From: an uncultured Methanosarcinales archaeon
GTDB taxonomy: Archaea > Halobacteriota > Methanosarcinia > Methanosarcinales > Methanogasteraceae
Length of the DNA: 34,325 bases
Assembly: GCA_965369365.1 (NCBI GenBank)
Contig: CBDUQO010000003.1
Coordinates: 1-34,325, forward strand
Direction: 5' to 3'
The position numbers were made by a program, and so were the translations under genes. How positions within the stretch are numbered: the stretch's first letter is position 1; each line of letters opens with the position of its first letter. Of this stretch, positions 17,182 through 34,325 are shown in pieces. The notes beneath the pieces are model-generated. The model saw only the letters and a program-made list of their open reading frames with translations. It did no database searches and was not told the origin of the DNA.

Positions 17182-19560
17182 ATGAATCGGGAGGGAATAA
17201 TGAGGCGATCGTTGCCATTGCAAGACATAATCAACTTCGACGAGCTTCAAGAGATCCAGGACGGATTTGCAAAGGTTATCTACACATCTTCAGTGATCTT
17301 TTCACCGGAAGGAGACGCCTTGACTCGTTTCAGCAACCCAACCGACTTTTGTTCGCTGATCCAGTCAACCACCAAAGGGATGCGGTGTTGTTTCCAGTCA
17401 TTTGCAGATATGGGTCAGAAAGTCCTCGAGTCAGACGAACCTGTGCTTATGCGCTGTTTCGCGCACGGTGCACACTTTGCCGCACCGATCATAATCGATG
17501 GTGAGCGCAAAGCAACGATGTTCATGGGACAATTTGTAACAGAGGAGTTATCCCCCGAGCAATTGAAGGAACTCAGAGAAATCGCTGCGCAGATCGACGT
17601 GGATCCGGACCTGCTGGTTGCAGAAGCAAGAAAGATGCGCGTGGTCCGGGAAGATGCGGTCCGGAATTATGCAGCCTCATTATCGCAGACCGTCAGGGTC
17701 ATCGCAAGGCTGGGCGCGCAGGCAATCGAACTCATGCGGGCAAAAGATGCGCTCCAGGAGTCACATGATGAACTGGAGTCACGTGTAAAAGAGCGCACCA
17801 CGGAACTTGCTTTAGCAAACACCGGACTGAAGCAAGAGATCGCCGAGCGCAAGCTTGCCGAAGATCATATTGAGCACCTGAACAGCGTTCTTAAAGCCAT
17901 CAGGAATGTTAATCAGTTGATCGTATCTGAGAAAGACCGGGACAACCTCCTCCGGAAAGCATGTGACATCCTGTTAGAGGCACGGGGCTACGATGCCGCG
18001 TGGTTCGGACTCCTGCAAGATGATGCAACCTTTGAGATGGTTCTGGGTTCCGACTCAAGACGTGATCCTCCCCGCTTCTGCGATGATATGGTTGGCAGGG
18101 GTCCGTCACAGTGTTTCAAAGATGCACTTACCCGGAAAGAGAGGATTACGATCGTTGACAAATTCGTTGAGTGCAAAGATTGTACGTTCAAGAGCGCTTA
18201 TGTCGGCAACGAAACTGTGATCATCCGTGTCGAACATGCAGAAAGGCTCTTTGGGCTGCTTGCGATCTCGCTTGCCGCCGATGTCGATGTCGCTGCCGAC
18301 GACGACGAAAAAAAACTCCTCAAGGAGGTTGCTTCCGACATAGCGTTTGCTCTACATGATATTGAACTGGATGAGGCACGTAAAGCCATTGAGAATACGC
18401 TCCGGGAGAGCGAGGAGAAGTACCGCACCTTAATTGAGAATATCCAGGATGGTGCATTCCTCATTCAGGACGGGGAGCTCACGTTTGTCAATGAGGCGTT
18501 TGCAAGGATACCGGGCTACACCGTGGAGGAGCTCCTCGGGATGAATTTCGGAGAACTTGTTGCGCCAGAGGACCTGGATATGGTTGCTGATCGCTACGTC
18601 CGGATGATGGCAGGGGAAGATGTGCCTATGGAATATGAGTTTCATGGCATGCGGAGGGGCAAAGATACGCGAATTATCCTCCACATGACTGTCGGACTTA
18701 TTGACTATAATGGCAAGCCGGCAGCGATTGGAACGGTGAAGGACATAACCGAGCGAAAAAGCATGGAAGATGCACTCCGGGAGAGCGAGATTATGTACAG
18801 AACACTCTACGATTCTTCCAGGGACGCGATCATGATACTGACACCTGAAGGGGGATTTTTCAGTGGAAATTCCGCCACTATGGAGATGTTCGGATACAAA
18901 GACGAAGAAGAGTTCACATCTATGACCCCGGCTGACATATCTCCCGAATACCAGCCGGACGGATCTTTATCCCTGCCAGAATCCCGGAAGGCAATGGCGG
19001 TCGCAATGGAGAAAGGATCGCACTCATTTGAGTGGAAACACAGACGCAGTTGGGGCGAGGAGTTCTTTGCTGATGTTTTGCTGACCAGAGTGAAGTTCGA
19101 TCACAAAGAATTTTTGCAGGCGACGGTTAGGGACATAACCAGACGCAAGATTGCGGAGGCTGCTCTGCGTGAGAGCGAGGAGAAGTACCGCACCTTAATT
19201 GAGAATATCCAGGATGGTGTATTCCTCATCCAGGACGGGGAGCTTAAGTTTGTCAATGAGGCGTTTGCAAGGATACCGGGCTACACAGTGGAGGAGATCC
19301 TCGGGATGAATTTCGGAGGACTTGTTGCGCCAGAGGACATGGATATGGTTGCTGATCGCTACGTCCGGATGATGGCAGGGGAAGATGTGCCTATGGAATA
19401 TGAGTTTCATGGCATGCGGAGGGGCAAAGATACGCGAATTATCCTCCACATGACTGTCGGACTTATTGACTATAATGGCAAGCCGGCAGCGATTGGAACG
19501 GTGAAGGACATAACCGAGCGAAAAAGCATGGAAGATGCACTCCGGGAGAGCGAGGAATAG
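17182..19560 (+). CDS. Cytoplasmic sensor: PocR, coiled coil, GAF and three PAS domains; ends at TAG
   Basis: PocR (LQEIQDGFA, FCSLI, FAAPIIIDG), GAF (AIRNVNQLIV...EVASDIAFAL), repeated ESEEKYRTLIE...DITERK PAS units. Confidence 0.88.
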   Translation: MNREGIMRRSLPLQDIINFDELQEIQDGFAKVIYTSSVIFSPEGDALTRFSNPTDFCSLIQSTTKGMRCCFQSFADMGQKVLESDEPVLMRCFAHGAHFAAPIIIDGERKATMFMGQFVTEELSPEQLKELREIAAQIDVDPDLLVAEARKMRVVREDAVRNYAASLSQTVRVIARLGAQAIELMRAKDALQESHDELESRVKERTTELALANTGLKQEIAERKLAEDHIEHLNSVLKAIRNVNQLIVSEKDRDNLLRKACDILLEARGYDAAWFGLLQDDATFEMVLGSDSRRDPPRFCDDMVGRGPSQCFKDALTRKERITIVDKFVECKDCTFKSAYVGNETVIIRVEHAERLFGLLAISLAADVDVAADDDEKKLLKEVASDIAFALHDIELDEARKAIENTLRESEEKYRTLIENIQDGAFLIQDGELTFVNEAFARIPGYTVEELLGMNFGELVAPEDLDMVADRYVRMMAGEDVPMEYEFHGMRRGKDTRIILHMTVGLIDYNGKPAAIGTVKDITERKSMEDALRESEIMYRTLYDSSRDAIMILTPEGGFFSGNSATMEMFGYKDEEEFTSMTPADISPEYQPDGSLSLPESRKAMAVAMEKGSHSFEWKHRRSWGEEFFADVLLTRVKFDHKEFLQATVRDITRRKIAEAALRESEEKYRTLIENIQDGVFLIQDGELKFVNEAFARIPGYTVEEILGMNFGGLVAPEDMDMVADRYVRMMAGEDVPMEYEFHGMRRGKDTRIILHMTVGLIDYNGKPAAIGTVKDITERKSMEDALRESEE
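18406..19554 (+). repeat. 384-bp intragenic direct repeat (18406-18789 and 19171-19554), duplicated PAS domain
   Basis: Copies offset by 765 bp; I counted about 8 substitutions by eye, all in the 5' half. Confidence 0.95.
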
Positions 19561-23672: not shown

Positions 23673-24689
23673 TTACTGACAAACAACTCTGACAATGTGA
23701 TCCAATGGCTTTATGTCGAATCTAACCTCTGTGAATTGCTCGCTTACCCTGATATTTGTTTTTGCGTGGAGTGATAGCTCCCGCGTTGTAAACGATCCGG
23801 ATTTCGCTATAGCCATGTATGGAATCAGTTGATCTGCCAGATAAATATCCACCGCGGCTTTAGAGTCAAGTTCTCTGATAATATTATCCGCTGCGCCTGA
23901 TCCAACCACCTCGGCTGGTTTCCCACGCTCCCCAAGCGCAGATCCACCGATATGACCGCACCAGAGCGTAATTCCACTGCCTGTTGATGCAGCACCCTTG
24001 CCGGGGGGTGCCACCGTGATATCGGTATCGATCCTGCCATCGTGCCCGTGATCATGCAGTCTGGCGATAGCCGCACTACGCTGCCTTTTTGCGACGTGTT
24101 CAGGGAGCCTTGACGAGTGTGAGCAGCCATGAACCGCATCGGAAGTTTTTTCGCAAAAATCGGCACCGGAAATCCCGGATGGCTCGATCACCGCCCGGAC
24201 ACGCCCGCCTCCGCGCGGGTAATAGCCGCGCCGCATGACCTCGATGTTCACATCGCACCCCATCAGCGCGAGCGCGGGCAACAGGACATGGCGAAGGTGG
24301 TCGATCGGCGGGCTCCATTTCACATCGGTGCCGCCCGTGATGTCAAGGACGACCGTATCCGGAGCATGGAGTGCAACAGGGATCAGACACTGGAGAAGGA
24401 GTGAAATACTACCGGCTGTGCCAATATCCATGCGATACGTTCCGCCGATGATCTCGCCCGGGATAAATGTCAGTTCTGTGGACCTGATCTCATCGCCTGT
24501 TGTATCAGCCCCCGTAAGTTCAGTCATCGCCCTGATTGCTGCCAGGTGCTGAGCCGAAAGCCCTGGCTTTGGGCGGTTTTTACGAATATGGACAATCTTG
24601 ACAGGTGTTTCCGTAATCGCAGCCATGGCAACAGATGTGCGCAGGATCTGTCCGCCGCCCTCTCCGAACGAGCCGTCAATGGTTAGCAT
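23673..24689 (-). CDS. rtcA: RNA 3'-terminal phosphate cyclase
   Basis: IDGSFGEGGGQILR, RPKPGL..QH, GTAGSI, GGTDV, RGYYPRGGG, LADQLIPY, HAKTN. Confidence 0.96.
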   Translation of the reverse strand: MLTIDGSFGEGGGQILRTSVAMAAITETPVKIVHIRKNRPKPGLSAQHLAAIRAMTELTGADTTGDEIRSTELTFIPGEIIGGTYRMDIGTAGSISLLLQCLIPVALHAPDTVVLDITGGTDVKWSPPIDHLRHVLLPALALMGCDVNIEVMRRGYYPRGGGRVRAVIEPSGISGADFCEKTSDAVHGCSHSSRLPEHVAKRQRSAAIARLHDHGHDGRIDTDITVAPPGKGAASTGSGITLWCGHIGGSALGERGKPAEVVGSGAADNIIRELDSKAAVDIYLADQLIPYMAIAKSGSFTTRELSLHAKTNIRVSEQFTEVRFDIKPLDHIVRVVCQ

Positions 24690-24714: not shown

Positions 24715-25995
24715 CTAAAGCAGCCTTGCTGGCACGACCTGTTTCGCGATCAGGTCTCCGTAACTCTCCTGTCCGCGTATCAAGTCCACCTCACCCGCGC
24801 TGACCAGAACCTCGGCACACCTACAGCGTCCGTTATACTGGGAGCTCATGGAAAACCCGTACGCTCCGACATCGAGCACGGCAACCACATCACCAGGTTC
24901 GATTGGCGGCAACTTACGATCCTTTGCAATGACATCGCCTGATTCGCAGATTGGTCCCACGACAGTATACGTTTCAGTCCCGGCAAGATCCGCTTTGTTT
25001 GCAACAACCACCTCGTGGTGCGCATCATACATAGCGGGGCGGATCAGCAGATTGAGTCCGGAATCCACACCCACAAAAGTCTTTGCCGCCTTTTTTATAG
25101 TATTTACACCCGTGAGAAGAATGCTTGCATCGCCGACGATGTATCTGCCCGGTTCAAGTATCAGTTTTGGGGATATCCCAAGATTTTTCGAGCGCTCGTT
25201 AAACGTTGGGAGGATTGCGCCAGCAAGATCGCGTGGTTCTGGCGTTTTTATATCCTTCTGGTACGGAATGCCAAGCCCGCCCCCAAGATCAACAAATTTG
25301 AGATCAACGCCGAGTCTCGTGATCTGTTCGACCAGATCCATCATCTTTTCGACTGCCTCGCCGAAAGGAGCAACATCGACGATCTGCGAGCCGATGTGGC
25401 AGTGGATGCCAACCGGACGCACTCCTCTGAGTTTGTTTGCCTCTTTGTACGCTTCCACCACATCAGCATACCCGATTCCAAACTTGGAGGCTGCAAGACC
25501 GGTTGCGATCTTTGGATGGGTGTCAGGAGAGACGTCAGGGTTGACCCTGAATGCAACATCCATTGTTTTGCCGGATTTGACAGCGAGATCGGAGAGTGCA
25601 TACAGTTCGTGGAGCGAATCCATAGAGACGCGCACTCCGGTATCAATTGCCATCTGTAGCTCGTTTAACGTCTTTGAGTTGCCATTAAAAAGAATCCGCT
25701 CCGGCGGAATACCTGCAAGGAGTGCTGCGTAGAGTTCGCCGTCAGAGAAGACGTCAGCACCCGCCCCTTCGGACGCAAGGATCCGCAGGATCGCAAGATT
25801 CCAGTTTGCCTTTGCTGCATAGTATATATCCGCATCAGGAAATGCTCCCCTGAATGTGCGGAAGTTCCTGCGCACACGGTCTTCGTCGAGTACATACAGC
25901 GGCGTACCGTACTCCTGTGTGAGTGAGACTGTATCGACGCCGCCGATAGTGAGGTGGTGGTTCTGTATGCTGAGATGATCGCTTATTCCGGACAT
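24715..25995 (-). CDS. lysA: Diaminopimelate decarboxylase
   Basis: YGTPLYV, YAAKAN (PLP lysine), SKFG, HCHIGSQ, LGGG, EPGR, GPICESGD, GAYG. Confidence 0.96.
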   Translation of the reverse strand: MSGISDHLSIQNHHLTIGGVDTVSLTQEYGTPLYVLDEDRVRRNFRTFRGAFPDADIYYAAKANWNLAILRILASEGAGADVFSDGELYAALLAGIPPERILFNGNSKTLNELQMAIDTGVRVSMDSLHELYALSDLAVKSGKTMDVAFRVNPDVSPDTHPKIATGLAASKFGIGYADVVEAYKEANKLRGVRPVGIHCHIGSQIVDVAPFGEAVEKMMDLVEQITRLGVDLKFVDLGGGLGIPYQKDIKTPEPRDLAGAILPTFNERSKNLGISPKLILEPGRYIVGDASILLTGVNTIKKAAKTFVGVDSGLNLLIRPAMYDAHHEVVVANKADLAGTETYTVVGPICESGDVIAKDRKLPPIEPGDVVAVLDVGAYGFSMSSQYNGRCRCAEVLVSAGEVDLIRGQESYGDLIAKQVVPARLL

Positions 25996-26069
25996 TGGTA
26001 CTCCTAAGTATGAAATGTTACAGATATAAAAAACGTCAGTTCCAAACTACTTAAGAGTTTTTGAAAAAT

Positions 26070-26270
26070 CAGTAGTTCCGAAACCGCCTCCATCCGAACG
26101 GGAAAAACCTATGAAAGACAGTTTCACATAACTCCAAATGATTTTTACTCGTCAATCTGATAATATTGTGATATAATTTGTCTTATTCTTACTTATTTAT
26201 CTAAAAACTGTTTTTATACCACACTTACATGACAATTTCCATTTGGAATTATATTCTTTCAGAAGTGCTG
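26070..26270. mobile_element. MITE-like element, left copy (~200 bp)
   Basis: Begins cagtagttccgaaa and ends tttcagaagtgctg (imperfect 14-bp TIR); colinear with 30252-30451; preceded by AAAAT. Confidence 0.75.
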
Positions 26271-26277
26271 AATCAAT

Positions 26278-26332
26278 GCAAAAGTATATATGTTACGAGT
26301 AACCAGTGTAATCGATGTAACATGGGTGTAAT
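26278..26332 (+). promoter_or_regulatory. Putative BRE/TATA promoter with an overlapping operator
   Basis: gcaaaagtatatat, then palindrome GTTAC-ga-GTAAC (26292-26303) and GTAA boxes at 26299, 26308, 26317 and 26328. Confidence 0.5.
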
Positions 26333-26471
26333 CTCTACCACTATTCGGGACATTGATGAAAGTCTTTATCGCAAATTTAGAGCCGCATGTGTTGAAAAGA
26401 AAATGAAGACCGGAGACGGTATCAACGAAGCAATCAATCTTTGGTTGAAAAAACAGGGAAAATTAAGCTAA
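26322..26471 (+). CDS. Small ribbon-helix-helix DNA-binding protein (49 aa)
   Basis: MGVISTTIRDIDESLYRKFRAAC...TGDGINEAINLWL fits a beta-alpha-alpha pattern; the track start at 26229 falls inside the MITE. Confidence 0.75.
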   Translation: MGVISTTIRDIDESLYRKFRAACVEKKMKTGDGINEAINLWLKKQGKLS

Positions 26472-26513
26472 TATAGTATCAAAGAAATGTGAATAAAGGG
26501 GGATACTCTTCGC

Positions 26514-29500
26514 ATGGATCAAGAAGAAACATATGAAAAAGTTTGTTCTGAACTTGAATATCATTGCGGGATAATAAAGGATATAGAACAAGCTCACTCT
26601 CCTGTGCAGAGACATCTTTTCTCTGAAGCAAAACGACTAATAAGAAATATTGATGCTATGTATTTCTCAGGTGACGTACCGATCGCCTACTTTAAACTAC
26701 TGTCGTCTGATTTTGACGAAACGGAAATCATAAAGCTTCATCGTCGTGTCTGGAATCAAAGTCGCATCCCTCTTCTTTATGTTATTACTCCTGGTGAGTT
26801 GCGGATATACAATTGCTTTGAAGAACCTGCTAATCCTGAGATCGAAGAATTGGATACACAGAAAAGACTTATCAAACACTTTGATATAGCAGCAGGAATT
26901 CTTGAGGGGCTCAAGAAATTTTCAAAATCTCAGATAGATTCCGGTGCTTTTTGGAAATCGGAAGAAGGGCAGAGATTTCGAAGCGATCGAATGGTGGATC
27001 AGAGACTCCTTAAACACCTTCGTATCACTCGTGAAAAATTGCACGACCAGGGGTTAGAATATTCAGTTATCCATAATCTTTTGGGACGATCTATTTTCAT
27101 CCTGTACCTCGAAGATCGCGGTGCAATTGATAAAGATACATTCTATAATCAATTTTTAGATGGTGCAACAACGTATTCTGATGTGATCAAAGACAAGAGC
27201 GCGGTATATCGATTATTTGAAAAATTGAAAGAAGAATTCAATGGCGATCTTTTTCCTGTGACTGATGAAGAGCGAAACAGCAACGTAAATAGTACGCATT
27301 TGAAACTCATCAGAGAGCTTTTTTATGGGACAGATATGGGTACAGGTCAGCAAACGCTCTGGCGTCCTTATGATTTCGGAGTCATTCCAATCGAACTCAT
27401 AAGTGCGATCTATGAAAAGTTTCTACATAAAGAAAAAGAAAAAGGTTATCTATCAAAAGAAGGTGCTTATTACACACCACACGCCCTTGTCGAATTTATA
27501 TTGAATGAAGTGTTGCCATGGCCAAGTAACCGTGACCATCGGTATGAACTAAGCATCCTTGATCCGGCATGTGGTTCTGGTATTTTTCTTGTTGAAGCTT
27601 TTCGCCGGTTGGTCGCGCGGTGGAAGTTCAGCCATAACGATAAGGACATTTCGATTCCAGAATTGAAGCGCATTCTCACTAATTGTATTTATGGAGTTGA
27701 CATCAACAAGGATGCTATTAGAGTGGCTGCATTCAGCCTGTATCTGGCATTCATGGATTATCTTGAGCCCAAGACGATAGGGGATGAAATTCGGTTCCCG
27801 TATTTGGTATACTGCCCAGAAGATCCAGACAAGTATGGAAAGAATCTGTTTCCGATGGATATATTTGAAACGGTGCCATTCGAGAACATGAATTACGATA
27901 TCATAGTAGGTAATCCACCTTGGAAACGCGATAGTCTTCCTGAACACATATCGAATTATCTTAGTAGCAGAGGTTTTGCTCGGGAGATTGCACAAGCCTT
28001 CCTATGGCGCGTCCGCGATTTTTCGTCCAATGGAAAAATCGCTTTATTGGCAACAAGTAAGATTCTATTCAACACTGAAACAAAAGATTGTCACTTCCGC
28101 AGGGAATTTTTCGGACAAAACTATGTAGAAATGGTTGTAAACTTCTCTGCGCTAAGAAGAACAAAGGGTAAGAAAGGGAGGCAACTTTTTGTATCCGCGG
28201 TTGGACCTGCTACTCTTTTCTTTTATCGTACGAATACACCCGAACAACCTAAATCTGCCATATTGTACTGTACACCCAAACCAACGAGGGCAGATAATGC
28301 ACTACCTGGAATTACCATAGACGCGTCTGAGTTCAAATTTCTACCCAGAATGAAATGTAGCACCTCTGATATGATCTGGAAGGTGGCAATGTGGGGAACT
28401 CAGCGAGATTTGGAGCTTATAGAACGACTCCAAAAATATGATACTTTGACAGCATATTTCGGTTCCTGCAAGAGTGATTTATCGTGGAAAAAAGCACACG
28501 GGTTTCAAACGTCATCCAGCCACAATAAAAACAAACCTAACGATCGCTTATCAAATATGCCGTTCATTGATGCGAAAGACGTCACACGTTTCTGGATAAA
28601 TCCCGATAAAATTACGAAAGTGAAACCAAATGCTTTTTTCAGATTCGGATGCACGGAAACATATTCCGGACCGCACATTATTATAAAAGAAGGGCAGGCG
28701 AATAAGAAGTTTTGTGCCGCGTTTACTGAGCATGATTGTGCTTTCCGCAAGACAATAACTGGGGTGTCCGGACCTTCGGATGAATCTGCTTTGATGAAAG
28801 CAATCACGGCATACCTAAATTCTTCTTTTTCATCGTATTTTCTATTCTTGACCGCTTCAACTTGGGGGATAGAACGTGAAAGTGTATATCCCACAGAGGT
28901 TTTTCGATTGCCGGATTTACCATTTCGTTTTACGGATGAGCAGATAGATAAGCTGGCAGGCAATGTTGATGCGATTGGTAAATTGATGGCAGATGGGTTG
29001 CCTGATACCGATGCGTATATCTGCAAAATCGAAGCTGAGATAGATCAAATTATTTATAAAAGTCTTGATCTGTCCAAATCCGAGCGATTTTTAATCGATG
29101 ATGTACTCGAATATAGTCTGGATTTTTTCCAAGAAGGTGAGAACTCCAAAGCCTGTAACATAGTGGATACTAAAGACCTTGAAGCTTATTCAGAAACGTT
29201 CTGTGATGCGGTTAACAGCATTCTACAATTTGGAGAATCGAGAGCAAAAGCAACGGTTTATCGTGGTGATGCACCACTTCGTGTAGTATCCATTCGCTTC
29301 AACGAAGTTGATGACGAAAGAACTGTAACGGTATCTGATTCGACCGATGAGTTGGAAAATGTTCTATCAAGACTCGACAGGCAGATTATAGAAGAATATT
29401 CCGGAAGTATATATGTTAGGCAAAATGTGAAAATCTATGATAAGAACACGCTCCATATAACAAAGCCTGATGAAAAACGCTTCTGGACTCGTTCGATGGC

Positions 29501-29552
29501 CCTGCGTGATGCAGATGAAACATTAGCTGAAGGATTGCGGCGGAGTAGTTGA
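26514..29552 (+). CDS. Large N6-adenine DNA methyltransferase, type IIG/Eco57I-like, with a TRD region and an apparently degenerate N-terminal nuclease domain
   Basis: GAYYTP, motif I LDPACGSGIFL, YGVDI, motif IV GNPPW, FNGDLF, IPIELISAIYEKF, C-terminal AYLNSS. Confidence 0.9.
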   Translation: MDQEETYEKVCSELEYHCGIIKDIEQAHSPVQRHLFSEAKRLIRNIDAMYFSGDVPIAYFKLLSSDFDETEIIKLHRRVWNQSRIPLLYVITPGELRIYNCFEEPANPEIEELDTQKRLIKHFDIAAGILEGLKKFSKSQIDSGAFWKSEEGQRFRSDRMVDQRLLKHLRITREKLHDQGLEYSVIHNLLGRSIFILYLEDRGAIDKDTFYNQFLDGATTYSDVIKDKSAVYRLFEKLKEEFNGDLFPVTDEERNSNVNSTHLKLIRELFYGTDMGTGQQTLWRPYDFGVIPIELISAIYEKFLHKEKEKGYLSKEGAYYTPHALVEFILNEVLPWPSNRDHRYELSILDPACGSGIFLVEAFRRLVARWKFSHNDKDISIPELKRILTNCIYGVDINKDAIRVAAFSLYLAFMDYLEPKTIGDEIRFPYLVYCPEDPDKYGKNLFPMDIFETVPFENMNYDIIVGNPPWKRDSLPEHISNYLSSRGFAREIAQAFLWRVRDFSSNGKIALLATSKILFNTETKDCHFRREFFGQNYVEMVVNFSALRRTKGKKGRQLFVSAVGPATLFFYRTNTPEQPKSAILYCTPKPTRADNALPGITIDASEFKFLPRMKCSTSDMIWKVAMWGTQRDLELIERLQKYDTLTAYFGSCKSDLSWKKAHGFQTSSSHNKNKPNDRLSNMPFIDAKDVTRFWINPDKITKVKPNAFFRFGCTETYSGPHIIIKEGQANKKFCAAFTEHDCAFRKTITGVSGPSDESALMKAITAYLNSSFSSYFLFLTASTWGIERESVYPTEVFRLPDLPFRFTDEQIDKLAGNVDAIGKLMADGLPDTDAYICKIEAEIDQIIYKSLDLSKSERFLIDDVLEYSLDFFQEGENSKACNIVDTKDLEAYSETFCDAVNSILQFGESRAKATVYRGDAPLRVVSIRFNEVDDERTVTVSDSTDELENVLSRLDRQIIEEYSGSIYVRQNVKIYDKNTLHITKPDEKRFWTRSMALRDADETLAEGLRRSS

Positions 29553-30232
29553 ACATGTTGATGGATATTCAAAACACAATTGGGCGGGCAAGTGACGTTC
29601 TTCCGATTGTTGATTCCAAATTCGAGAAAGCATGCCTCTGGATTATGACCGAAGCCTTCAAACAAATGAAACGAGAAAAACGCTATGATGTAACATGGAA
29701 AGAAACTTGTTTTTCTGCTTGTTTAGTTGGGCACATGCAAAAAATAAGACATGAAAATGATATCGCATTGAGAATCGATCCGGAAAGCCATTTATACCGA
29801 GAAGAGATGTTAAACTGTACTGAAGATCCTGATACTGCTCCCAGAATTGACATTAAAATCTCTGGGGGCTGGGTACACGAGAACGTATATTATGGAATAG
29901 AAGGAAAAGTTTTGGTAGAAAACGATTGGGGAACACGCACTGCCAGTGATTCACGTCGTCGATATATCGCTACTGGAATTGATAATTTCGTCAACGGTAG
30001 ATATTCGGACAAACTGGATATGGGCTGTATGGTGGGATATGTAGTTCAAGGGCGCGCCTCTGGAATTGCCTCAAAAATCAACAATTTGCTGGCACGCGAT
30101 GGACGAAATAAAGAAAAGATGATGAATCCGCACTCAATTAACGGTTGTTCAGATTGTTTTCGGTCAAACCACACACGTACCACGGACAATAAAGAAATAA
30201 AACTCTGCCACGTCTTTTTAACATTTGTTTAA
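29549..30232 (+). CDS. Hypothetical protein, predicted PD-(D/E)xK nuclease
   Basis: E...RIDIKI...GIEGK followed by YI..GIDNFVNGRY and GCMVGYV; TTGA overlap with the MTase stop. Confidence 0.7.
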   Translation: MNMLMDIQNTIGRASDVLPIVDSKFEKACLWIMTEAFKQMKREKRYDVTWKETCFSACLVGHMQKIRHENDIALRIDPESHLYREEMLNCTEDPDTAPRIDIKISGGWVHENVYYGIEGKVLVENDWGTRTASDSRRRYIATGIDNFVNGRYSDKLDMGCMVGYVVQGRASGIASKINNLLARDGRNKEKMMNPHSINGCSDCFRSNHTRTTDNKEIKLCHVFLTFV

Positions 30233-30251
30233 GGGATTTATTCAATGTACT

Positions 30252-30451
30252 CATCAGTTCCGAAACCCCTTTACTTCCAAACCGGAAAAGCATATGAAAG
30301 ATGGTTTCACCCAATTCCAAATGCTTTTTACTCTTCAATCTGGTAATATCTTGATACGCCCCCCATTTTGATTATCTCTCCAAAATATCCTTTTCCATGC
30401 CGCATTTGCATGACAATCTTCATCCAAAACTACGCCATTTCGGAAGTACTG
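30252..30451. mobile_element. MITE-like element, right copy (~200 bp)
   Basis: Begins catcagttccgaaa and ends tttcggaagtactg; shares tatgaaaga, tccaaatg.tttttactc.tcaatctg.taatat and catgacaat with the left copy; followed by AAAAT. Confidence 0.75.
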
Positions 30452-30517
30452 AAAATGGTGTGGGGCAAACGATTCCCGCCTGACAGCCCGTTTCACCGAT
30501 CGTTATCGTCCGTCCCA

Positions 30518-31336
30518 TCATGCCTCTGGAAATCGCTGCTTCCGCTTGATCTCCTCGACCCGAGCATTCAAACTCCGGTTAAGCTCCTCTCGCACCCCCA
30601 CCACGTCGCTGTCGCTGTAATAGTCGATCCGTGCGGCGATCGTTAGTTTCGAGGCGAACATGCGTGCGATTTTGCCGCGCAGGTGGCGAGGGGACGCGTG
30701 GATGATGGGGTGCATGAAGATGATGCCGTGCTTTGGGGGGGAGGCTCCGCGCAGGTGGCGAAACATCGCCCGGTTCGCACCAAGCACCTGCAGGCGGCTT
30801 GCTGGCATCCGGGATAGTTTATCGAGACCGCCTGCGATGGCAAGCAGCCTTGCAGCAAGCAGGGCACCTGCAAGGTGTGTGAGGTTTGGGGAAACGCATG
30901 GCATCTGATCCTGAATATGTGCAACAAGCATTTTTTTGCTCTCGCTTATGTCCCGTAGATTCTGTGCAAGGCTGCGCATAGCATCCGGGACGTTATTATG
31001 ATGATCTTCCACGATTTTCCTGGCAAGTTCTCTTGACTCCGGGATTGACCCCTGGTAAAAAGAATACCATTCAAACAGACGCTCACTAAGAAGGTTTGAG
31101 ACTTCGTTCAGCGTGTCAAGCGCTTCGATGTCCTGGATAACTCGTTTATCCCCGGATGCAAACAACGGGAGTAAAATTTGCTTTTTTGCAAGTTCGATGG
31201 TTATCTCATGCAATAAAACTCGATATTCATCTTCAGAACTGACAACCCCCGAATCGAACAACCACGCACGAAGATTTGTTACCGGACTTTTAAAGCCCGG
31301 TAATAACCTGCGAACAATCGCAGATGGATCTGCCAT
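30518..31336 (-). CDS. nop5: Box C/D RNP scaffold Nop5/Nop56
   Basis: NLLSERLFEWY, PNLTHLAG..LAARL, MPASRLQVLGANRAMFRHL, PPKHGII, RGKIAR..A.KL.IAARID. Confidence 0.92.
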   Translation of the reverse strand: MADPSAIVRRLLPGFKSPVTNLRAWLFDSGVVSSEDEYRVLLHEITIELAKKQILLPLFASGDKRVIQDIEALDTLNEVSNLLSERLFEWYSFYQGSIPESRELARKIVEDHHNNVPDAMRSLAQNLRDISESKKMLVAHIQDQMPCVSPNLTHLAGALLAARLLAIAGGLDKLSRMPASRLQVLGANRAMFRHLRGASPPKHGIIFMHPIIHASPRHLRGKIARMFASKLTIAARIDYYSDSDVVGVREELNRSLNARVEEIKRKQRFPEA

Positions 31337-32007: not shown

Positions 32008-34325
32008 ATGAGAAAAGCATTAGTATCTGACATTCTATCACTGACATGCATCGCAGTGATTGTCTTGTCAGGCTGCATCGAGACCGGCACCCTCTCTGAT
32101 AGGGGCAACGATACGCCCGCCGAGGTTGCCGATTACCTGATACTTGCCCCGAAGACACTCTTTGTCGGAAGTGAGAGTTCGATTAGCATGTCCGCGTTTA
32201 CAGGCGACGAACACATCCCCGCCGAACGGCACATTGAGTGCGCGCTTCTGGATAGCAACAAAACTAAAGTTTCTCTCGTTCGCGCATCAACGGGCGAATC
32301 CGGGCACTCGGTCGCACGATTCGAGGTTCCTCTAATCGAGGAAGGCACGTATTCGCTAGTTGCAGAGCCTGTTGGTACTGATGAGTCATACACTGCAACA
32401 GTCAGGGTTTTGAAGAGCAACCCGATCTTTATCGAGACTGACAAGCCAATCTACAAGCCCGGACAGACGATCCACGGCAGACTCCTCCTCCTGAACAACA
32501 ACCTCTTACCACTTGCAGATTCCGTGGAACTGGAGATTGCCGACGCGAAAGGGATCAAAGTCTTTCGGGAGACGCTTGGCACGAATGATTTCGGCGTAGC
32601 CACGTTCGATCTGCCACTATCAACCGAACCGAATCTCGGGACATGGAAGATCAAAGCAGTCTCTGGCAAATCAAAGGCGGTCCTGGATATCCTGGTCGAG
32701 CGCTACGTGCTCCCCAAGTTTGGGATTGAGTCGGATATGGGAAAAGACTGGTTCCTTGTCTCTGACCTGATCACGGGCACCGTCTCCGCGAACTACTTCT
32801 TCGGAAAACCGGTCGAGGGTTCTCTTGAGATCGAGGCGTCAAAGTATGTCGGCACCTGGGAAACTTACGCCACATACAGCGCAATTCTCGAGAACGGCTC
32901 TGCCAAGTTCGAACTACCAGCCGTAAAGTGGATCGCAGGGACTTACGGTGCAGGTGGGCAGGGCAGCCTCATGCTGAACATTTCGGTCACAGATACGGGG
33001 AATCACACCGAGACTACGACAGAACTCCTGAAAATCGTGGAATCGGACATGATTCTCAATCTGATCCCCGAATCCAACATCGTGAAGCCAGGACTCCCGT
33101 TTGAGGTACTGATCGTGACCGAAGACCCTGACGGAAACCCAATCAATGCGGACGTTGATGTGAGAACCACGTTCCGCCAGGAGGGTTACACTGAAACCGG
33201 TAGAGAAGATGCTGTTTCGACTAAAAATGGGGTTGCTATCGTGAGTTACGTTATCCCGGGCAATTGCACAGGCACCCTAATCGAAGCAACATGCTGTGAC
33301 TCAAGCGGCTCAACAGTGTGGCAGTGTGTGGATCTTGATGCTGCGTACTCCCCCGGTGCAAGCTTCATCCACATCGCACAGACGAGCGAGGGCGTGCCAT
33401 ATATCGGCGACACGATCACCTTTACCATACGCTCGACCAACCCCGGCACGGTATTCTATGACATCTACGCGAACGGTAGAACCGTGTACTCGGGCACTGG
33501 TGAGCGATCAGAGATTGCGGTTCGGGTCACGCCACAGATGAGTCCATCTGCAAAGATCGTGGCATATATGATCAACCCGAATTGTGAGGTCTCTGCCGAC
33601 GTCTTACCATTTGACGTTCGTTTCGAGACGAGCGTTGATCTAACGTCGGCTTTTGATAGCGAGACCGTATCCCCGGGTGACTCAGTGCGAGTTGCCTTTG
33701 ATGCAGGGGAAAAGTCGATGATCGGCGTCGCAATCGTTGACGAATCGGTCTATGCGCTGAGTGCTGGCAGGCTCAACCTCAAGCAGGTCTTTGACGAGCT
33801 GGAAAAGCGGTTCATGGAACCTCAGATCGAGATCCATCCGGAATATGGCTATTATGACCGGCGTATCGGAACATACGAGATTCTGGATGATGCAGGCATG
33901 CAAGTGCTCGCATCGTCGTCGTTTAAGATTCCAAAGACGCCTGAGTCGGAAATGCAGGTTCCGGATGCAGTGGGGAAGTGGAAAGGGGGCGCAAACAGGG
34001 AGTTTGCGATGGACGTGGCGGTTGAGGAAAGTTTGGACGGGGCATCGGCGGTGGACGGGATGGGGGAACCTGTGCCCGGTACTGCACCAAACGCGGCAGA
34101 GACTGGCGAACTCGCAGTGGTCAAGCGCGTGCGCCAGTTTTTCCCGGAGACATGGCTCTGGCTGCCGAACCTCCTCACCGATGAAAATGGTCGTACGTAC
34201 ATCGATCTCACCACACCGGACAGCATCACGACATGGCGGCTTCATGCGGTCTCGTCATCAGGTGCGGGCATCGGGATATCAGAGGACAGTCTCACAGTAT
34301 TTCAGGAGTTCTTCCTCGATCCTGA
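32008..34325 (+). CDS. Alpha-2-macroglobulin/thioester-protein family lipoprotein (partial, runs off the window)
   Basis: Open frame from ATG 32008 (GGTGA RBS) to the window edge, 772 codons; lipobox LSGC; FIETDKPIYKPGQ, VERYVLPKF, YFFGKPV, KPGLPF, IVDESV, VRQFFPETWLW, PDSITTW, VFQEFF. Confidence 0.93.
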   Translation, partial: MRKALVSDILSLTCIAVIVLSGCIETGTLSDRGNDTPAEVADYLILAPKTLFVGSESSISMSAFTGDEHIPAERHIECALLDSNKTKVSLVRASTGESGHSVARFEVPLIEEGTYSLVAEPVGTDESYTATVRVLKSNPIFIETDKPIYKPGQTIHGRLLLLNNNLLPLADSVELEIADAKGIKVFRETLGTNDFGVATFDLPLSTEPNLGTWKIKAVSGKSKAVLDILVERYVLPKFGIESDMGKDWFLVSDLITGTVSANYFFGKPVEGSLEIEASKYVGTWETYATYSAILENGSAKFELPAVKWIAGTYGAGGQGSLMLNISVTDTGNHTETTTELLKIVESDMILNLIPESNIVKPGLPFEVLIVTEDPDGNPINADVDVRTTFRQEGYTETGREDAVSTKNGVAIVSYVIPGNCTGTLIEATCCDSSGSTVWQCVDLDAAYSPGASFIHIAQTSEGVPYIGDTITFTIRSTNPGTVFYDIYANGRTVYSGTGERSEIAVRVTPQMSPSAKIVAYMINPNCEVSADVLPFDVRFETSVDLTSAFDSETVSPGDSVRVAFDAGEKSMIGVAIVDESVYALSAGRLNLKQVFDELEKRFMEPQIEIHPEYGYYDRRIGTYEILDDAGMQVLASSSFKIPKTPESEMQVPDAVGKWKGGANREFAMDVAVEESLDGASAVDGMGEPVPGTAPNAAETGELAVVKRVRQFFPETWLWLPNLLTDENGRTYIDLTTPDSITTWRLHAVSSSGAGIGISEDSLTVFQEFFLDP

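Follow-up and report, generated by a model that had tools for sequence, protein, structure and literature searches.

A candidate two-gene type IIG-like restriction-modification module with a separate PD-(D/E)xK nuclease in a Methanosarcinales-like archaeon

The DNA considered here, called the window throughout, is a stretch of 34,325 nucleotides (nt) from an archaeon of the Methanosarcinales (contig CBDUQO010000003.1 of assembly GCA_965369365.1). On its forward (+) strand it carries two adjacent genes, one for a protein of 1012 amino acids (aa) with the motifs of an N6-adenine methyltransferase (MTase; 26514..29552), and one for a protein of 225 aa, the partner, which is predicted to be a PD-(D/E)xK nuclease and the catalytic restriction subunit (29555..30232). 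The pair appears to be a two-gene, type IIG-like restriction-modification (RM) module with its nuclease in trans, which is widespread and has gone unannotated. The principle of such a split is already in print, but the version with a stand-alone PD-(D/E)xK nuclease seems to be new. Our preferred explanation, which we regard as probable though far from secured, is that of a two-subunit enzyme in which the MTase aims a nuclease without specificity of its own, with horizontal acquisition of the surrounding island as one part of that explanation.

The MTase family is common, with at least 580 stretches encoding a relative when one genome per species is considered. By record title, the best 80 of these (at least 580) belong to Bacteroidota (44), Chloroflexota (21), Planctomycetota (4), Acidobacteriota (3), Archaea (3) and Campylobacterota (2), the remainder being one each from Gammaproteobacteria, KSB1 and Deferrimicrobium. 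In 74 of these 80 MTase-seeded loci, from at least nine phylum-level groups, the MTase gene is followed immediately by the partner in the same orientation. Of the six misses, five are truncated by a contig edge, which leaves the partner present in 74 of 75 assessable loci. The sole real miss (L082) has the same type of N-terminal domain and no partner at E 1e-3; a 169-codon downstream frame with a faint, out-of-order resemblance was not counted. In two loci the partner is split over two frames (L024, 6972-7585; L046, 6814-7547), probably through a frameshift, pseudogenisation or an assembly error.

The linkage is also seen from the side of the partner. The partner profile matches 5 of 401 genomes in the window's own phylum (its own included), and all five other loci there follow an MTase homologue of 31-36% identity. 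Among Bacteroidota 18 of 401 genomes match, and 19 of 20 loci follow the C-terminus of an MTase homologue, giving an MTase directly upstream in 24 of 25 partner-seeded loci. The exception is L099, where the preceding open frame of 420 codons fails the MTase profile. When all open reading frames (ORFs) of at least 70 aa were clustered, the MTase and the partner were the only two families common to 81 loci. The median gap between them is -1 nt; in 65 of 68 loci the gap does not exceed 20 nt, and in 36 of 68 the genes overlap. Plasmid-borne MTase relatives with 25-28% identity (Mameliella, Bradyrhizobium, Clostridium sporogenes) also keep a ‘hypothetical protein’ of 217-222 aa, which matches the partner profile at 1e-20 to 1e-25, although a tblastn search of the partner against plasmids returned nothing. 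No MTase relatives were found in a phage collection at E 1e-20. An earlier, sequence-only reading of this DNA had put forward a three-gene system that included a small ribbon-helix-helix (RHH) gene. Its proposed link between MTase and nuclease genes is borne out in both directions, but the core is two genes, with the RHH gene found only in the two closest relatives, from anaerobic methanotrophic archaea (ANME), and other regulators elsewhere.

The large protein has full-length homologues of about 1000-1060 aa. Pfam assigns it to N6_Mtase (7.9e-19), Eco57I (2e-17) and MmeI_Mtase (7.4e-8), and among the models of PADLOC, of which the protein models were scanned, REase_MTase_IIG (PDLC03603) aligns over residues 71-1002 at E 4.1e-90. 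The catalytic domain spans residues ~290-590 (27381..28283), with motif I (DPACGSG) at 350-356 and motif IV (NPPW) at 467-470; D350, C353-G356 and N467 are invariant in 34 homologues. These motifs, and the N-terminal ones named in the sequence-only reading (IDAMYF 46-51, PIAYFK 56-61, VWN 79-81, LRIYN 96-100), all stand where that reading had placed them, and they are beyond chance because they are conserved family-wide. The protein is predicted to be an intact gamma-class N6-adenine MTase. No solved structure of any close relative was found.

The C-terminal part of the MTase holds one recognition region, in agreement with the target recognition domain (TRD) suggested earlier. A weak match to TaqI_C, which is on record for some homologues, covers residues 683-781 (E 0.0019, under the cut-off), and the least conserved stretch of the protein is 651-700. 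Comparison of close relatives shows that residues ~620-960 (28371..29393) form an exchangeable cassette. The loci L034 and L041 are ~90% identical over residues 1-620 and 88% over 967-1012, and just 18-48% over 622-960. A second pair, L069 and L071, shows the same pattern, and across both pairs the identity is 18-52% in 622-960 and 88-95% in the tail. The constant C-terminal tail (residues 967-1012; 29412..29549) therefore does not move with the cassette but remains part of the scaffold, and within it residues 976-1000 have a mean column identity of 0.57.

These swaps bear on which subunit reads the DNA. In the cassette-swapped pairs, with TRDs 44-45% identical, the partners are 71-78% identical, as against 59-92% in pairs with the same cassette and similar core identity, and no swapped segment is seen in the partner. 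That the cassette can be exchanged while the partner shows no corresponding change argues against direct reading of the DNA sequence by the partner.

The partner ORF extends over 29549-30232 (+) and would encode 227 aa from a TTG codon. Its homologues are 224-226 aa long, which makes the ATG at 29555 the likely start, 2 nt past the MTase stop (29550-29552). Counted in the 227-aa frame, RIDIK lies at 99-103 and IEGK at 117-120. Whether searched as a single sequence, as 79 members or as a profile, the partner has no match in Pfam, PADLOC, NCBIfam, PHROGs or the PDB sequences; against the last of these the profile gave a chance-level match (E 0.66) and the single sequence none. Every source name met among its homologues is ‘hypothetical protein’. 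An exhaustive HMMER search nevertheless places 362 representative clusters (50% identity) in the family at E 0.001 or better. One homologue, P0234 (392 aa), has a C-terminal extension of ~170 residues.

Conservation in the partner family centres on a candidate active site. E52, E118, K120, Y139, G143 and H221 are invariant in a 79-sequence alignment, and D101 nearly so. Among 67 independent partners from genome loci, D101, E118, K120 and Y139 are kept in all 67, and E52 and H221 in 66. The AlphaFold2 model of the partner (mean predicted local distance difference test 94.4, predicted template modelling score 0.89) has a helix at 52-69, strands at 74-81, 99-106 (with D101) and 115-123 (with E118 and K120), a helix at 132-148 and a strand at 158-167. 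As modelled, this is the alpha-beta-beta-beta-alpha-beta core of PD-(D/E)xK enzymes, with the D on strand 2 and the ExK on strand 3. The claim that the downstream gene has a D...ExK site is thus upheld by an invariant or nearly invariant E...D...ExK in a restriction-endonuclease-like predicted model. In Foldseek nothing matched the model at E 0.001 or better; SduA, McrC, EcoO109I and the DrdV nuclease domain are among the weak matches at the top of its list. Structural alignment with VIA-align against 48,161 chains gave OkrAI, BglII, BamHI, BstYI and MunI as the closest folds. Among the Atlas leads were MunI-type clusters, scoring 0.75-0.76, and a single cluster that bears the automatic name Eco47II family. 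The Eco47II assignment (PF09553) was rejected: none of the 79 members has a Pfam match, the family search was empty in a genome with members of the present family (G401), and hhalign against two members gave a probability of 0.15%.

The N-terminal domain of the MTase protein seems to be a nuclease-like domain that lacks the catalytic acid and has been retained for some other function. The active-site motif of the MmeI nuclease is VD70-X9-E80MK82 (PMC2582602), and the equivalent stretch here is ID47-X11-Y59FK61, with Tyr59 at the position of the catalytic Glu. Compared by eye, the order of elements in MmeI-type enzymes is IDLFWKG-VEHKS-helix-PKYILVSDF-FRLYD, and in the 1012-aa protein IDAMYFSG-AYFKL-helix(WNQ)-PLLYVITPGELRIYN, so that MmeI_N and this domain share a strand-turn-strand-helix-strand-strand layout. 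The conserved core comprises residues 45-110 (26646..26843), within which residues 51-100 equal the MTase motifs in conservation. Position 59 is never acidic, whether in 115 close homologues (0/115) or in 69 wider ones (0/69); the residues seen are Y, F, L, C and H. W80 is invariant, and N81, P56 and P105 nearly so. D47, K61 and E95 are conserved in 83%, 89% and 96% of the close set, and D47 and K61 in 60/69 and 48/69 of the wider set. The plasmid-borne relatives are without D47 and K61, yet they keep W80-N81 (WNQ) and the partner gene. None of the 69 members matches the Pfam model MmeI_N, which also finds nothing in G401, and 24 of 69 have a weak match to the helical spacer model MmeI_hel. 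An hhalign comparison of the domain with the partner indicated no relation (probability 0.2%).

Under our preferred explanation, the 1012-aa protein would recognise a DNA motif through its one exchangeable cassette and methylate an adenine within it. Its N-terminal domain would be the remnant of an MmeI-type nuclease domain, with the catalytic acid lost, and under strong selection, most likely as a dock for the partner, or else as a DNA clamp. The translationally coupled partner would be a BamHI-like PD-(D/E)xK nuclease without sequence specificity, cutting unmethylated DNA only where the MTase subunit places it, and if it is so placed a swap of the cassette would retarget protection and cleavage together. 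The small upstream RHH protein would be a lineage-specific controller of expression. The separation of the nuclease from the MTase/TRD protein, also proposed in the sequence-only reading, is supported by the two-way linkage, the motif and predicted model of the partner, and the N-terminal domain without the ExK acid.

Several observations weigh against this explanation. The folds closest to the partner model are those of sequence-specific type IIP enzymes, which fit a classical enzyme pair as well. An hhalign comparison of the N-terminal domain with 13 MmeI_N sequences was not significant (E 0.093, 20 columns), and because of this the term ‘nuclease remnant’ depends on the visual layout. Of the ‘dead nuclease domain’ claimed earlier, then, the loss of the ExK acid stands, and descent from a nuclease is suggested by that layout. 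Two 20-residue windows of the partner, 32-51 and 203-225, differ at a few more residues in the swapped pairs, and some co-variation with the cassette is therefore possible. A search of proteins of 428-2000 aa turned up no fusion of the MTase with the nuclease, although this is weak evidence. To our knowledge, no member of the family has been assayed.

It is conceivable, if rather unlikely, that the two genes are a classical type II pair, in which the small protein is a sequence-specific endonuclease and the large one an unusually large cognate methyltransferase for the same site. The type IIP folds nearest to the partner (OkrAI, BglII, BamHI, BstYI, MunI), its length of 225 aa, which is typical of such enzymes, and the Atlas leads to MunI-type and Eco47II-named clusters would all suit this arrangement. 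The Eco47II name is not borne out, however, and cassettes are exchanged between near-identical scaffolds while partner divergence stays within what unswapped pairs show and no segment of the partner is swapped. A single partner family is moreover recognisable over 362 clusters and many phyla, and such breadth is unusual for type IIP enzymes. An improbable alternative is a heterodimeric nuclease, with the N-terminal domain still active in a non-canonical way through D47, K61 and E95 and nicking one strand while the small subunit cuts the other. In Cfr10I-type enzymes the acid is known to come from another part of the fold. The 83-96% conservation of the three residues in the close clade, together with residues 51-100 being as conserved as the MTase motifs, speaks for this view, and large-plus-small heterodimers have precedents in BtsI, BsrDI and BspD6I (PMC1950550, PMC2909958, PMC6261011). 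This sits poorly with the wider family, where K61 is kept in just 48 of 69 members and D47 in 60, and with the plasmid relatives, which have neither residue and retain WNQ and the partner; position 59, furthermore, is never an acid in either set.

The pair may also not serve restriction proper, and the methyltransferase could instead restrain a nuclease that acts as a toxic or abortive effector, as in addiction or abortive-infection modules, or the two could act in epigenetic regulation or repair. The tight coupling of genes that are always together, the upstream regulators, including LexA/CI-like repressors in some lineages, and the presence of the module on plasmids and islands lend this some colour. 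We nevertheless consider it quite improbable, as an MTase, a variable cassette and a PD-(D/E)xK nuclease make up the architecture of an RM system, and cassette swapping is a hallmark of specificity diversifying under pressure from invaders. Since any RM system also acts as an addiction module, the effector reading overlaps with the two-subunit RM enzyme that we prefer.

A PADLOC-type annotation would call the MTase a self-sufficient type IIG enzyme. With the MTase labelled type IIG and the partner without a family, genome surveys arrive at wrong counts of type IIG enzymes and overlook a large family of nucleases. If the specificity does come from the MTase subunit, the module would offer a simple scaffold of natural origin whose cutting and protection are both redirected by exchanging one cassette, a prospect relevant to enzyme engineering and to the question of how single-chain MmeI-type enzymes arose or fell apart. 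A bolder view, which we hold tentatively and with less than even confidence, is that these pairs constitute an unnamed and very widespread class of RM system. In this class a vestigial nuclease domain would dock a free-standing BamHI-like nuclease without specificity of its own, one cassette would reprogram methylation and cleavage, and lineage-specific repressors, LexA/CI-like ones included, could make restriction inducible by DNA damage, while current tools count a one-protein type IIG enzyme and miss the nuclease.

The gene upstream of the MTase differs between lineages. In the window it is a 49-aa ORF (26322..26471, +) that is RHH-like but below threshold, as its match to ParG (E 6.6e-4) scores 20.2 bits against a cut-off of 21.4; a FitA-like RHH model gives E 0.11. 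It is conserved in L003 (94%) and L009 (69%) only, and probably acts as a lineage-specific regulator of the module's transcription. Elsewhere, the same-strand gene immediately before the MTase encodes a repressor with HTH_3 and Peptidase_S24 domains in L014, L017 and L019, and a MerR protein in L020, L026 and L027; in two alphaproteobacterial plasmids it is a 158-aa ORF, weakly MerR-like in one of them. The HTH_3 and Peptidase_S24 proteins are LexA/CI-like and occur in Saprospiraceae and Fulvivirga relatives (L014, 3144-3926; L017, 3081-3863; L019, 3223-3957). In lineages with such a repressor upstream, it is a possibility that restriction is induced by DNA damage.

Other defence genes occur near the module. 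Among 146 flanking ORFs, PADLOC matches at 1e-10 were found in 17 of 34 loci and strong matches to dedicated defence genes in 9 of 34, figures for which there is no background rate to compare. The strong matches are to HmaC, a type IV enzyme, a dGTPase, GajA/GajB, RmrA, AbiEi/AbiEii, PDC-S02, another type IIG-like MTase and, in one further case, AbiEi. The locus L012 (31-3782) is a dense defence island: immediately upstream of the family member are a fragment of another methyltransferase, type IIG/DrmMI-like, and an SMC/AAA ATPase matching mad3 of MADS, and downstream is a dCTPase-like gene.

The host is an ANME-2/Methanosarcinales-like archaeon, and the closest relatives of the module are in genomes named ANME-2 cluster archaeon, Methanosarcinales archaeon and Candidatus Methanoperedens. 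The source assembly comprises 2.2 Mb in 294 contigs and is rated 84% complete. The module occupies a low-GC island at 26.0-30.5 kb, where G+C is 0.36-0.42 as against ~0.5 on either side, and the content of the island is three co-directional (+) ORFs of 49, 1012 and 227/225 aa. Its flanks are housekeeping genes, namely those for RNA 3'-phosphate cyclase (23673-24689, -), an Orn/DAP-type decarboxylase (24715-25995, -) and Nop5 (30518-31336, -).

The island is bracketed by an imperfect direct repeat of ~200 nt, with an upstream copy at 26072..26275 (+) and a downstream copy, aligned with it, at 30258..30460 (+). The core of the repeat (26093-26173 and 30276-30356) is 81 nt long with 83% identity, and the alignment extends to ~200 nt. 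A third, partial copy with 75% identity lies in another low-GC patch of the same genome (G000:C2:29296-29387, which is L139 7297-7388), just upstream of a response-regulator gene. Possible explanations for the repeat are a promoter region in common or the boundary of a cassette. One metagenome contig (run X7) joins window position 26064 to 30452 and skips 4387 nt, at a depth of 9, with a shorter side of 27 letters and a likeness threshold of 85. This joint could represent an ‘empty site’ without the island, though joints of this kind are often artefacts. The window contains no tRNA, and between 25.5 and 31 kb no Rfam family was found except for one chance-level match (E 0.56). Elsewhere in the window, and unrelated to the module, are a PocR-GAF-PAS sensor protein (17182-19560) and an alpha-2-macroglobulin-like protein with MG2, MG3, MG4, bait region and A2M domains (32008-34323), which runs off the window end.

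Among known systems, the single-chain type IIG/IIL enzymes (MmeI, DrdV, BpuSI, Eco57I) resemble the large protein in having an N-terminal domain, a helical spacer, a gamma-class N6-adenine MTase and one recognition region, and MTase motifs I and IV are present in the 1012-aa protein together with a recognition region in the same chain. It differs from them in that its N-terminal domain is without the catalytic acid and the nuclease is a separate, obligatorily linked protein of 225 aa. Type III RM systems (Mod and Res) also combine recognition and methylation in one subunit that aims a separate nuclease subunit, as is proposed for the pair. Res has a helicase motor, however, whereas the partner is a single nuclease domain with no sequence match to Res and no conserved helicase gene nearby. 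Unlike type I systems, the pair has no separate HsdS and HsdR, and HsdM-like matches cover the MTase core only; as noted in the sequence-only reading, HsdR and HsdS are absent from the flanking genes, and neither is conserved among the loci. Matches to BREX, DISARM and MADS touch the catalytic core only, with PglX models at 37-56 bits against cut-offs of 400-900 and MAD2 at 27 against 720, and no PglZ, BrxC or Drm genes lie in the window flanks.

The partner shares 7-10% sequence identity and no profile match with BamHI, BglII, OkrAI and BstYI. Each of those enzymes is a homodimer that recognises a palindromic site by itself, whereas the partner co-occurs with exchangeable MTase cassettes. Mechanistically, the nearest tested analogues of the pair appear to be BtsI, BsrDI and R.BspD6I, large-plus-small heterodimers in which the small nuclease subunit depends for its activity on the large, recognising one (PMC1950550, PMC2909958, PMC6261011). 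In these enzymes, by contrast, the large subunit is itself a nuclease, methylation is carried out by separate enzymes, and there is no sequence relation to the pair.

The closest published systems are among the 76 ‘type IIG-like’ systems of Blow et al. (2016; PMC4752239), labelled IIG* in the tables of that paper. Some of these have an MmeI-family MTase/TRD protein without PD-ExK and an endonuclease on a separate peptide, as illustrated by AchA6III, with a PLD nuclease-translocase, OspHL35III, with a translocase and a GIY-YIG nuclease, and MexAMORF1192P, with an HNH nuclease and two translocases (PMC4752239). In a literature search for the exact pairing this was the only close report, and the pair may be among its IIG* rows, which give names and motifs rather than sequences. 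The earlier description of the system as undescribed therefore goes too far: the pair is not one of the three illustrated systems, but the split principle has been in print since 2016, and PADLOC places the MTase under type IIG (4.1e-90). The pair shares with those systems an MmeI-like MTase/TRD protein without an endonuclease motif and a predicted endonuclease on an adjacent peptide, and it differs from the three illustrated in having a stand-alone PD-(D/E)xK nuclease and no translocase. Because that study had already described split type IIG-like systems that use other nucleases, the present pair is best regarded as a variant of them (Blow et al., 2016).

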